Below are positions 20,609 to 21,594 of a stretch of DNA of 64,000 nt, piece after piece; within the stretch, counting starts at the first letter, position 1, and each line of letters starts with the position of its first letter. The stretch comes from Mycoplasma sp. CAG:472 (GTDB lineage: Bacteria > Bacillota_I > Bacilli_A > RF39 > UBA660): the NCBI GenBank assembly GCA_000437315.1, contig FR899419.1:16156-80155 (forward strand), in the 5' to 3' direction. The position numbers were made by a program, and so were the translations under genes. The notes beneath the pieces are model-generated. The model was not told where the DNA came from, did not search any database, and saw nothing but the letters and a program-made list of their open reading frames with translations.

Positions 20609-21349
20609 TCACACATCCCTTTCATTTATGCTATAATCATAAATTCTATCCTGATATTTAATTATAATTCCTTTATATATATCATCACTATAGGAAGTTT
20701 TTACATATGGATTAATATGATTATAATTCTTATTTTTATCACCAGTTATAACTTCAATAACTGGATTTGTTTTTTCTATATTAAGTTCAAAATCTAATAA
20801 AAATCTATTTAACTTAAACTTATGATGTTTTAAATAATCATAAAATACTTTATATTCATCTTCATTAAGCATTTTAGATATTTCATTTATTTGATTATCT
20901 TTATTAAGCATTTTAAGTTTATATATTAGATTTGGACTAAATCTATCGTAAATACTTTGATAATATTTATAATTTTCATCTACTGTATTATTCTTAACAA
21001 AATCAGATATTATTTTATCTTCATCAATCTTAAAAATTGCATCAACTTTATTAGCAATTTTTAAGGCATTACCATTTTCATAATCAGCATTATTATAAAT
21101 ATCAAGAAGTGATTTATCGATACCCTCTTTTACTTCTACCTTCTTTTTATCCTCTTCATAAAATTCATTATTAATTTTTTCTTCATTTGTTTCTTTGTTT
21201 TTTTCCTCTATTTTCTTATCAAGAGCTTGCATAGTCTTAAAGTAATATTTTTGACTATCTTTATTTAAGCTCTCAATAAGTTTTTTTAGAGAAAAGAACA
21301 TTATAACTGAAAGTAATCCAGTTAATATTAAAAGTAATACTATTTCCAT
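20609..21349 (-). CDS. N-terminally anchored coiled-coil protein (246 aa), possible b/delta-like stator
   Basis: N-terminal TM segment IVLLLILTGLLSVIMFF, then a charged helical stretch (KKIEEKNKETNEEKINNEFYEEDKKKVEVKE), then a ~120-aa globular C-terminus. The position between c-like and alpha-like genes mirrors atpF/atpH. Confidence 0.4.
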   Translation of the reverse strand: MEIVLLLILTGLLSVIMFFSLKKLIESLNKDSQKYYFKTMQALDKKIEEKNKETNEEKINNEFYEEDKKKVEVKEGIDKSLLDIYNNADYENGNALKIANKVDAIFKIDEDKIISDFVKNNTVDENYKYYQSIYDRFSPNLIYKLKMLNKDNQINEISKMLNEDEYKVFYDYLKHHKFKLNRFLLDFELNIEKTNPVIEVITGDKNKNYNHINPYVKTSYSDDIYKGIIIKYQDRIYDYSINERDV

Positions 21350-21594
21350 TAGCTAACAAACGGATTTAGATATAAAAGAATGTAAATAAAGGTAAATAAG
21401 AATAATAAAAATACCGCTAAAACGACTAGAATAGTCATTATTGAATGAATAACATCATTTTTAGTCTCTGGATTTCTACCAATAGACTCGGCTATTTTAC
21501 CTCCCATAATACCTAAACCAATTGATAAACCTAAGAATGTAAGACCTAAGATTATACCAACTGCTAACATTGTTGCATAAAGTACGCTTTCCAT
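21349..21594 (-). CDS. F-type c-subunit-like hairpin protein lacking the ion-binding carboxylate (81 aa)
   Basis: Two TM helices joined by [15 protein letters not shown] (compare the AtpE loop EGIARQPEA). Helix 2 ([27 protein letters not shown]) contains no Asp or Glu. Confidence 0.7.

Follow-up and report, generated by a model that had tools for sequence, protein, structure and literature searches.

In mycoplasmas, extra sets of F1 subunits, paralogous to alpha, beta, gamma and epsilon, are encoded beside membrane proteins that do not belong to Fo, and their ATP is thought to be spent on work at the cell surface and not on ion transport. The Type 2 enzyme, or G1-ATPase, of Mycoplasma mobile powers gliding through giant surface legs (PMC11864180), and the Type 3 enzyme (MSC_0618/0619, 'F1-like X0') is needed for the MIB-MIP surface system that cleaves antibodies (PMC12994834). 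The Type 3 cluster comprises seven genes, among them those for a protein with 12 transmembrane (TM) helices and for a large C-terminally anchored protein, and has no c, b or delta (PMC12994834); in a 2026 paper Type 3 is termed 'specific to mycoplasmas'. We describe here an operon that appears to resemble these systems in both respects and differs from them in its membrane part. It lies in a stretch of 64,000 nucleotides of Mycoplasma sp. CAG:472 (assembly GCA_000437315.1, contig FR899419.1, positions 16,156 to 80,155), hereafter the window, and it encodes, together with giant surface proteins, most parts of an F-type ATPase, namely c, b-delta, alpha, beta, gamma and an epsilon-like protein, while subunit a is missing from the cluster. 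The c homologue, a protein of 81 amino acids (aa), lacks the ion-binding carboxylate, and we consider it nearly certain that we deal with the homologue of a c-ring which translocates no ions, in an F-type ATPase derivative devoid of subunit a.

A c hairpin without a carboxylate has a natural precedent among F-type enzymes. In the Na+ F-ATPase rotor of Acetobacterium woodii (4bem) the double hairpin of c1 reportedly includes one hairpin free of the ion-binding Glu, and this hairpin is said to be a minority in a ring that still binds Na+ together with subunit a. The present case differs in that the sole c gene of the operon is without the site, so that the whole ring would be inert, and in that there is no a in the cluster. 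Further carboxylate-free cases were listed in the ProAD survey, where 20 F/N-type and 41 A-type ATPases with c/K subunits lacking Glu/Asp were labelled 'non-catalytic' (PMC11738941). That survey included only loci with all core subunits, a among them, and took the analysis of the non-catalytic c no further (PMC11738941); the a-less clusters considered here would be classed there as incomplete, and it describes no operon, distribution or link to surface proteins. Its 'non-catalytic' label is the only related remark that we found, and no description of this cluster was found in the searchable literature.

The relationship of the 81-aa protein to subunit c can be followed by several independent routes. 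Its match to PF00137 (ATP-synt_C) reaches 30.8 bits (E-value, E, 3.6e-7), above the gathering cutoff of 24 bits, and 14 NCBIfam subunit-c models match it as well, all of them under their equivalog cutoffs. Aligned by hhalign with genuine E. coli AtpE (from NC_000913), the family gives a probability of 95%. For the wider comparison we scanned one genome per species in 185,579 species, a match being a stretch that encodes a relative of c, and obtained 441 matching stretches; a set of 84 related loci, each extending 10 kb to either side of the match, was taken for detailed analysis; gene order in these loci was judged as far as each contig reaches. A jackhmmer search seeded with E. coli AtpE recovered all 84 c genes of this set. 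The protein is a two-helix hairpin with the GxGxGxG packing motif in helix 1 and an R(Q/N)P-type loop, as expected of a subunit c. A first-pass annotation, made from the DNA letters without database searches, had already seen a c-type hairpin with a polar loop akin to that of F-type c, and both parts of this view are borne out by the score over the Pfam threshold and by the RNP that the loop has retained.

The same annotation counted 18 residues from the loop Pro and arrived at an Ala in place of the essential acid. In the window the loop Pro is Pro42 and the residue is Ala60, and the alignments lead to this very position. With MAFFT, the protein aligned almost without gaps (a single one-residue gap near the N terminus) to the c subunits of E. 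coli, B. subtilis, PS3, Ilyobacter tartaricus and spinach, and Ala60 came to stand with Asp61 of E. coli and Glu65 of I. tartaricus. As an independent check of this placement, an HMMER profile built from 35 family members was compared with solved c subunits; the alignments with A. woodii c1 and c2 (4bem, the closest solved relative, E 1e-13 and 2e-8) and with chloroplast c (3v3c) run from end to end of the profile with no gap, and profile position 60, an 'a', faces the Glu that binds Na+ or H+ in the solved structures.

The helix-2 carboxylate required of a working subunit c is thus absent from the window protein, and its relatives share the loss. Of 196 unique relatives whose helix 2 is complete, 93 have Ala in this column, 49 Ser, 36 Thr, eight Val, five Phe and two Met, with other residues in the remainder. 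None of the 189 intact relatives has an Asp or Glu anywhere in helix 2, as had been noted for the window protein itself; the seven sequences that have one further along the helix are frameshifted or chimeric fragments. Nor did helix 1 offer any conserved acidic or polar residue among 35 diverse members. A register shift, or an alternative acidic residue that could take over the function, was considered and rejected: the helix-2 alignments are gapless and intact members have no Asp or Glu there. With no helix-2 carboxylate in 189 intact relatives we conclude, as far as sequences allow, that the protein is a homologue of subunit c by descent and not a working ion carrier. The conserved packing glycines and loop let us infer that it would still assemble into a homo-oligomeric ring, bound by gamma and epsilon. 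That such a ring could not serve as an ion turbine had been proposed on the basis of the one window, and the proposal is strengthened by the variability of the site and by the lack of subunit a in the 84 loci, to which we return below.

The c family is conserved and clearly delimited. A search of 5.8 billion proteins returned 216 relatives, almost all of 81 aa, and when 1.84 billion cluster representatives were searched exhaustively with the profile only 206 proteins came out at E <= 0.001, with the earliest carboxylate-bearing c subunits appearing at about E 1e-12; so few matches, and ordinary c subunits only from that value on, mark the family as a compact, distinct clade. It is carried by uncultured gut Bacilli, by Lachnospiraceae, Oscillospiraceae and Erysipelotrichaceae, and among cultured bacteria by Kineothrix alysoides KNHs209 and Hominiventricola filiformis CLA-AA-H276, with a Candidatus Merdisoma isolate in addition. 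In 35 diverse members 26 columns are invariant, and they cluster in the ring-packing glycines (G22, G26, G28) and in the cytoplasmic loop with its flank (A35, E36, G39, R40, N41, E43, T44, K45, D47, H50, S51, M53 and T54, with P42 nearly so), which gives the stretch GRN-ETK-D--HS-MT for residues 39-54; the extracellular C-terminal NP motif is invariant too. The c protein of the window shares 53-64% identity with those of distant Clostridia, about as much as alpha and beta do (52-64%), against 19-36% for the accessory proteins. As judged from these sequences, purifying selection on c is strong everywhere but at the former ion site. A c as conserved as alpha and beta, and encoded in 441 stretches, goes well past what chance would give and is not a decaying gene.

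A few observations on members of the family and on their more remote relatives may be added. The metagenome-assembled genome (MAG) JAEEIH01 (Lachnospiraceae Tb.RUG.141) holds three copies of the whole cluster (loci L028, L065 and L072), which implies a paralogous expansion of the machine. Three of the proteins (P0062, P0100 and P0115) are annotated publicly as 'F-type H+-transporting ATPase subunit c' or 'F0F1 ATP synthase subunit C'. The profile search of the representative library also yields fused c subunits of 238-435 aa with 3 to 5 hairpins (P0157-P0161, P0165, P0169, P0171, P0172, P0175, P0180); in these the carboxylate is found in hairpin 1, and within the 140-residue stretches covered, which end before the ion sites of the later hairpins, those hairpins open with divergent loops.

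The F1 head encoded next to this unusual c appears to be in working order. The ATP-synt_ab domain (PF00006) is complete in both alpha and beta (238 and 214 bits). Alpha retains its P-loop as GDKKTGKT and its Arg finger as SVSRLGG, and beta retains Walker A as GGAGVGKT, Walker B, the catalytic Glu in GAGERSREG and, as its equivalent of DELSEED, DEMSEED. Ahead of its beta-barrel, alpha has an N-terminal segment which we take to correspond to the delta-binding helix of E. coli. With gamma recognised by PF00231, whose cutoff is 39.9 bits, these motifs and domains suggest that an alpha3beta3gamma assembly would be catalytically competent. The proteins are divergent nonetheless, and NCBIfam equivalog cutoffs are missed throughout: atpD 401.7 against 462.85, atpA 380.4 against 484.45, gamma 53.1 against 194.45, c 21.6 against 43.95.

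For the peripheral stalk we have mostly the structural model to go by. The AlphaFold2 (AF2) model of the 246-aa protein (mean predicted local distance difference test, pLDDT, 82) shows a 60-residue N-terminal helix that includes a TM segment, after which come a bundle of helices and one small beta domain, and in a Foldseek search of the PDB its top 36 matches were all delta/OSCP chains of ATP synthase or mycobacterial b-delta chains, with probabilities up to 0.98. The sequence signal is weak: Pfam OSCP is found in 6 of 32 members, and a C-terminal motif matches E. coli delta at E 0.023. The model indicates that the 246-aa protein is very probably a b-delta fusion which forms the peripheral stalk. 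For the 87-aa protein, three NCBIfam epsilon models match 7, 3 and 2 members of its family (best E 4.7e-4), while Pfam, the PDB profile search and hhalign against E. coli epsilon gave no match supporting an epsilon identity; its length suffices only for the N-terminal beta-sandwich domain of epsilon.

Subunit a was sought with particular care. No open reading frame (ORF) of this kind (PF00119, with its essential Arg) was found in the window cluster or in the 84 loci, the rest of the genomes not having been searched, and jackhmmer searches with E. coli AtpB, AtpI, AtpF, AtpH and AtpC returned nothing in the 84 loci. The only multi-helix membrane protein that might have been taken for a degenerate a, the 168-aa product, evolves fast: its family has no invariant residue, hence no invariant Arg, and a single in-helix column occupied by Arg, Lys or Asn. 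Its AF2 model (pLDDT 78) is a five-helix bundle; no ATP synthase a chain was among the 50 fold matches listed for it, none of which was significant, and the family profile found no match in the PDB, in Pfam or, by hhalign, to E. coli AtpB. At the available sensitivity, with neither a profile nor a fold signal and no invariant Arg, its identity as a degenerate subunit a was rejected. In one Lachnospiraceae subclade (loci L028, L058, L061, L062, L065, L066, L068 and L070-L072) this 5-TM protein is fused to the 241-type protein in a single product of about 400 aa, encoded right after the epsilon-like gene, and such a gene fusion implies that the two proteins act together and suggests that they interact physically.

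The constant companions of the ATPase genes are fibrous surface proteins, and this linkage holds throughout the loci analysed. A gene of the 443-type always stands immediately upstream of c. At the N terminus of each of the 443-, 241- and 1974-aa proteins a short, basic tail leads into a single TM helix, followed by a juxtamembrane module of about 200 residues that is common to all three (hhalign 94% each). The 443-aa family contains FN3, with matches to fibronectin and tenascin structures in the PDB down to 2e-7, and the 1974-aa protein repeats units similar to those of this family; Pfam found nothing on the 1974-aa protein, and the PDB profile search with the 241-aa protein found nothing either. 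In Kineothrix alysoides the giant protein (L047:1691-8233) carries collagen triple-helix repeats (E 1e-12) and a Big_3_2 domain, the repeats hinting at a trimeric fibril, and the giant protein downstream of that cluster is likewise N-terminally anchored. The consensus of the 443-aa family also contains G-rich low-complexity linkers.

As to the arrangement of these genes, the cluster is kept in all 84 loci so far as the contigs reach. The window transcribes, in this order, the genes for the 1974-aa and 443-aa proteins, c, the 246-aa protein, alpha, beta, the 87-, 168-, 241- and 104-aa proteins and gamma. They are tightly packed; an AGGAG ribosome-binding site lies 8 nucleotides 5' of the c ATG, and the c stop codon overlaps the start of the 246-aa gene. 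The usual order elsewhere is giant, 443-type, c, 246-type, alpha, gamma, beta, 87-type, a membrane protein of about 176 aa and 241-type, usually with a second giant protein (>1200 aa) downstream of the last. Gamma is thus shifted to the operon end in the clade of the window and stands between alpha and beta in most relatives, whose core reads atpE-(F/H)-A-G-D-C, the canonical order.

How this system stands to the described ones can now be stated more precisely. With the canonical F1Fo operon (atpIBEFHAGDC) it shares, in most relatives, the succession c, b/delta, alpha, gamma, beta, epsilon, and further the catalytic residues, the helix-1 Gly motif, the RNP loop and the delta/OSCP fold. It differs from it by the lack of atpB and atpI, by a c without carboxylate, by the fusion of b and delta, by an epsilon cut to about 87 aa and a shorter alpha C terminus, and by the surface-protein genes embedded in the operon. 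The closeness of the A. woodii rotor points to descent from a clostridial Na+-type enzyme, as far as sequence comparison can tell. A second, divergent F-type operon beside the housekeeping enzyme is a feature of the N-type, and in this a likeness may be drawn. N-ATPases, however, keep subunit a, a c with a (Na+) carboxylate and atpQ/atpR. Membership in the N-type was rejected, since c has no carboxylate and the N-type models stay far under their cutoffs (TIGR03322 for c, 20.6 against 130.85; TIGR03305, 357 against 752; TIGR03324, 341 against 750.5).

Membership in the mycoplasma Types 2 and 3 was likewise rejected, on model cutoffs and on gene content. Alpha and beta stay under the cutoffs of the MMOB1660/1670 and MSC_0619/0618 models (380 bits against 600, 326 against 850, 291 against 520 and 380 against 570), and the beta subunit, which scores up to 340 bits with canonical bacterial F1 beta, reaches 268 with G1 beta (9io5), below all the canonical betas listed. 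In contrast to the mycoplasma clusters, which have a 12-TM protein and no c, b or delta, the present one has c, b-delta and a 5-TM protein; its alpha keeps the N-terminal segment, whereas Type 3 alpha is without the delta-binding N-terminal helix; and its surface proteins are anchored at the N terminus, whereas the large Type 3 protein is anchored at the C terminus. The mycoplasma Types 2 and 3 are the nearest systems functionally, and the present cluster is a separate lineage.

From what is assembled above, it would be natural to suggest an ATP-driven rotary ATPase which does not pump, in which a passive, carboxylate-free ring takes part and the work is delivered to surface proteins; taken as a whole, this is the explanation that we favour, with only a little more belief than doubt. 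The alpha3beta3 head would hydrolyse ATP and so turn gamma and the epsilon-like subunit, which would sit on the GRNPETK..D..HS..MT loops of a c-ring that the retained GxGxGxG packing would keep assembled. The head would be kept still by the b-delta stalk, for which the 5-TM protein is the probable anchor, and the c-ring would act in the membrane as a passive rotor or bearing. Work would pass to the co-encoded surface proteins, whose TM anchors would touch the ring or the stator, and surface fibrils that are moved, reset or remodelled are candidate outputs. Since the ring has no ion site and no subunit a faces it, such rotation could not move H+ or Na+. The mechanical coupling of rotation to the surface proteins, taken separately, we rate close to an even chance, if anything slightly under it. 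The first-pass annotation had spoken of an ATP-consuming device whose ring is a mechanical or scaffold element, and the F1 motifs, the delta/OSCP-like stalk and the surface proteins fit with it; its output is a matter of what we propose and not of what we observe. In a stronger form of the proposal, which we regard as rather doubtful, the machine would be an ATP-powered transmembrane rotary actuator whose carboxylate-free ring passes torque directly to FN3/collagen-like fibrils: the N-terminal TM helices of the fibrils would be in or on the ring, the stator would consist of b-delta, the 5-TM protein and the 241-aa paralogue, and the whole would be an appendage motor driven by ATP and not by ions, for motility, adhesion release or surface clearing.

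Several points weigh against the explanation that we favour. Assembly of the ring, its rotation and its contact with the surface proteins are all inferred from sequence, and the giant proteins of the operon could be cargo of the machine and not its mechanical output. The fold matches of the 246-aa protein are modest (E from 7e-3), with TM-scores that are low owing to the long helix; the assignment of the 87-aa protein is weak, and we keep it as 'epsilon-like'. The search for subunit a spans 10 kb on each side of a match, so that an a encoded in trans could lie elsewhere.

The thought of giant proteins as cargo leads to an export or assembly motor in the manner of FliI-FliJ, where the head would feed, unfold or assemble these proteins and the ring would be a static dock or conduit. 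The presence of the giants in the operon wherever contigs of the 84 loci reach, good scores of alpha and beta with FliI/SctN models, a c-ring with no ion function to perform and the translocase ancestry of F1-like ATPases discussed by Beven et al. (PMC3369863) all speak in its favour. We find it unlikely, as a complete rotor (gamma, epsilon-like, c), a b-delta stalk and a DELSEED-like motif suit torque and not a simple dock, the central channel would be filled by the gamma shaft, and the N-terminal TM helices of the surface proteins are signal anchors of the ordinary kind, which would suit Sec/YidC. Rotation might also be dispensed with altogether, if ring and stalk did nothing but tether an ATPase whose nucleotide state alters the conformation of the surface proteins. 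Such a switch would accord with the absence from the loci of subunit a as the membrane stator partner of the ring, and the Type 3 ATPases of mycoplasmas do seem labile and partly cytoplasmic (PMC12994834). It is, in our opinion, quite improbable, because all the rotary elements and the c loop that binds gamma and epsilon are conserved at the level of alpha and beta. True rotation is favoured since rotor elements and stator are both kept under selection, and the fact that the loop contacting gamma and epsilon is the most conserved part of c argues for rotation over a mere tether.

Two further explanations deny the loss of ion transport or deny a function. A cryptic pump would carry H+ or Na+ through a non-canonical site (for instance, His50/Ser51/Thr54), with a encoded elsewhere or replaced by the 5-TM protein. 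Conserved polar residues D47, H50, S51 and T54 do stand at the start of helix 2, the 5-TM protein has its one Arg/Lys/Asn column, and subunit a was looked for in the loci and not in whole genomes; but the polar cluster is near the cytoplasmic loop, 6-13 residues from position 60 in mid-membrane, position 60 itself is variable and apolar or small, the column is not conserved as Arg and the 5-TM model has no a-like fold. As it is established that every F, V, A and N rotor studied uses the mid-membrane carboxylate (see also PMC11738941), we give a cryptic pump very little credence. It might be said, finally, that the cluster is what is left of a duplicated atp operon in decay, or that it is an artefact of annotation, given that an essential residue and subunit a are both lost and that ProAD calls c subunits without Glu/Asp 'non-catalytic' (PMC11738941). 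This has next to no probability: the c ORF is intact, is preceded by a ribosome-binding site and shows translational coupling with its neighbours, identity is 53-64% across two classes and 441 stretches, the F1 catalytic residues are intact and one genome has up to three copies of the cluster, so that decay is effectively refuted by the conservation data.

The features of the operon and of its surroundings are collected in Table 1. The window is a piece of housekeeping chromosome with about 25% GC, every gene of which is on the same strand, and among its housekeeping genes are those for PriA, MnmA, trigger factor, DnaK and HrcA. Its identity to a MAG from the Hadza gut, which bears the label 'uncultured Bacilli bacterium', is 96.4%. 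The cluster is read with genetic code 11, and its carriers are Clostridia and non-mycoplasma Bacilli. The operon probably starts after a terminator-like hairpin and a promoter-like site (28898..28975), these sites being consensus matches only.

Table 1. Features of the ATPase operon and its neighbourhood, in positions of the window
Feature	Position	Strand	Basis or remark
Terminator-like hairpin after upstream gene	28975-28959	-	consensus match
Promoter-like site, followed by the operon	28926-28898	-	consensus match
Giant N-terminally anchored surface protein, 1974 aa, FN3-like repeats, first operon gene	22943..28867	-	
Single-pass membrane protein, 443 aa: N-terminal TM, juxtamembrane module, FN3-like domain	21609..22940	-	
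c-subunit homologue, 81 aa, without ion-binding carboxylate (Ala60)	21349..21594	-	PF00137, alignments
b-delta fusion-like stalk, 246 aa	20609..21349	-	AF2 model, Foldseek
F1 alpha-like, 440 aa, C-terminal domain shortened	19283..20605	-	Pfam, NCBIfam, motifs
F1 beta-like catalytic subunit, 448 aa	17937..19283	-	Pfam, NCBIfam, motifs
Epsilon-like, 87 aa, canonical position after beta	17690..17953	-	weak NCBIfam epsilon matches
Fast-evolving 5-helix membrane protein, 168 aa	17184..17690	-	AF2 model, profiles
Single-pass membrane protein, 241 aa, extracellular juxtamembrane module	16478..17203	-	
Soluble protein, 104 aa	16162..16476	-	window's clade only
F1 gamma-like shaft, 265 aa	15357..16154	-	PF00231 81.3 bits against cutoff 39.9
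Flp/Fap-type pilin-like protein, 61 aa, class III signal peptide	15129-15314	-	PF04964 E 9.5e-6, PF04021 E 1.6e-4
Protein of 642 aa	7493-9421	-	ALK/LTK glycine-rich domain PF12810, E 7e-41
Diversity-generating retroelement (DGR)	28984-34274		directly upstream of the operon
DGR reverse transcriptase (RT)	30631-31692		RVT_1, E 1.5e-16
DGR bAvd-like protein	31673-32062		
DGR template repeat (TR)	about 30527-30602		
DGR variable repeat (VR)	29071-29146		3' end of 374-aa protein gene
DGR variable repeat (VR)	32640-32715		3' end of 572-aa ORF
Membrane-anchored protein, 374 aa	28984-30108		
ORF, 572 aa	32556-34274		

The DGR has one TR for its two VRs, and the differences between TR and VR are mostly at coding-strand A, which matches the expectation for DGR mutagenesis. 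On the other side of the operon, just after gamma, the 61-aa pilin-like gene has its own promoter-like site and is found at that position only in the clade of the window (loci L005-L018). The domain family of the 642-aa protein is named for animal receptor kinases.

To our knowledge, every characterised rotor ring of the F-, V-, A- and N-types needs its mid-membrane carboxylate, and the standard picture of rotary ATPases makes no room for a homo-oligomeric ring that lacks this group. A carboxylate-free ring protein is nevertheless under strong selection in hundreds of gut species. The operon to which it belongs retains rotor and stator together with a competent F1 head, while the ion channel is lost and giant surface proteins have been acquired. 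The system is an uncharacterised derivative of the F-type ATPases, of wide occurrence, in which the rotor ring is blind to ions and surface proteins are built in. Because some of its c proteins bear the labels of subunit c in public annotation, bioenergetic and metabolic inferences drawn from them for such gut MAGs may mislead. If the machine rotates, an Fo ring would prove reusable as a purely mechanical part, and the 'F1-like ATPase for surface work', held to be specific to mycoplasmas, would reach into mainstream Firmicutes, with Kineothrix alysoides KNHs209 and Hominiventricola filiformis CLA-AA-H276 in culture as a tractable system; it would also help to explain how the Type 2 and Type 3 motors of mycoplasmas transmit force across the membrane. 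Should torque indeed be passed directly from the ring to the fibrils, ordinary gut Firmicutes would possess an independent and more complete counterpart of these mycoplasma motors.

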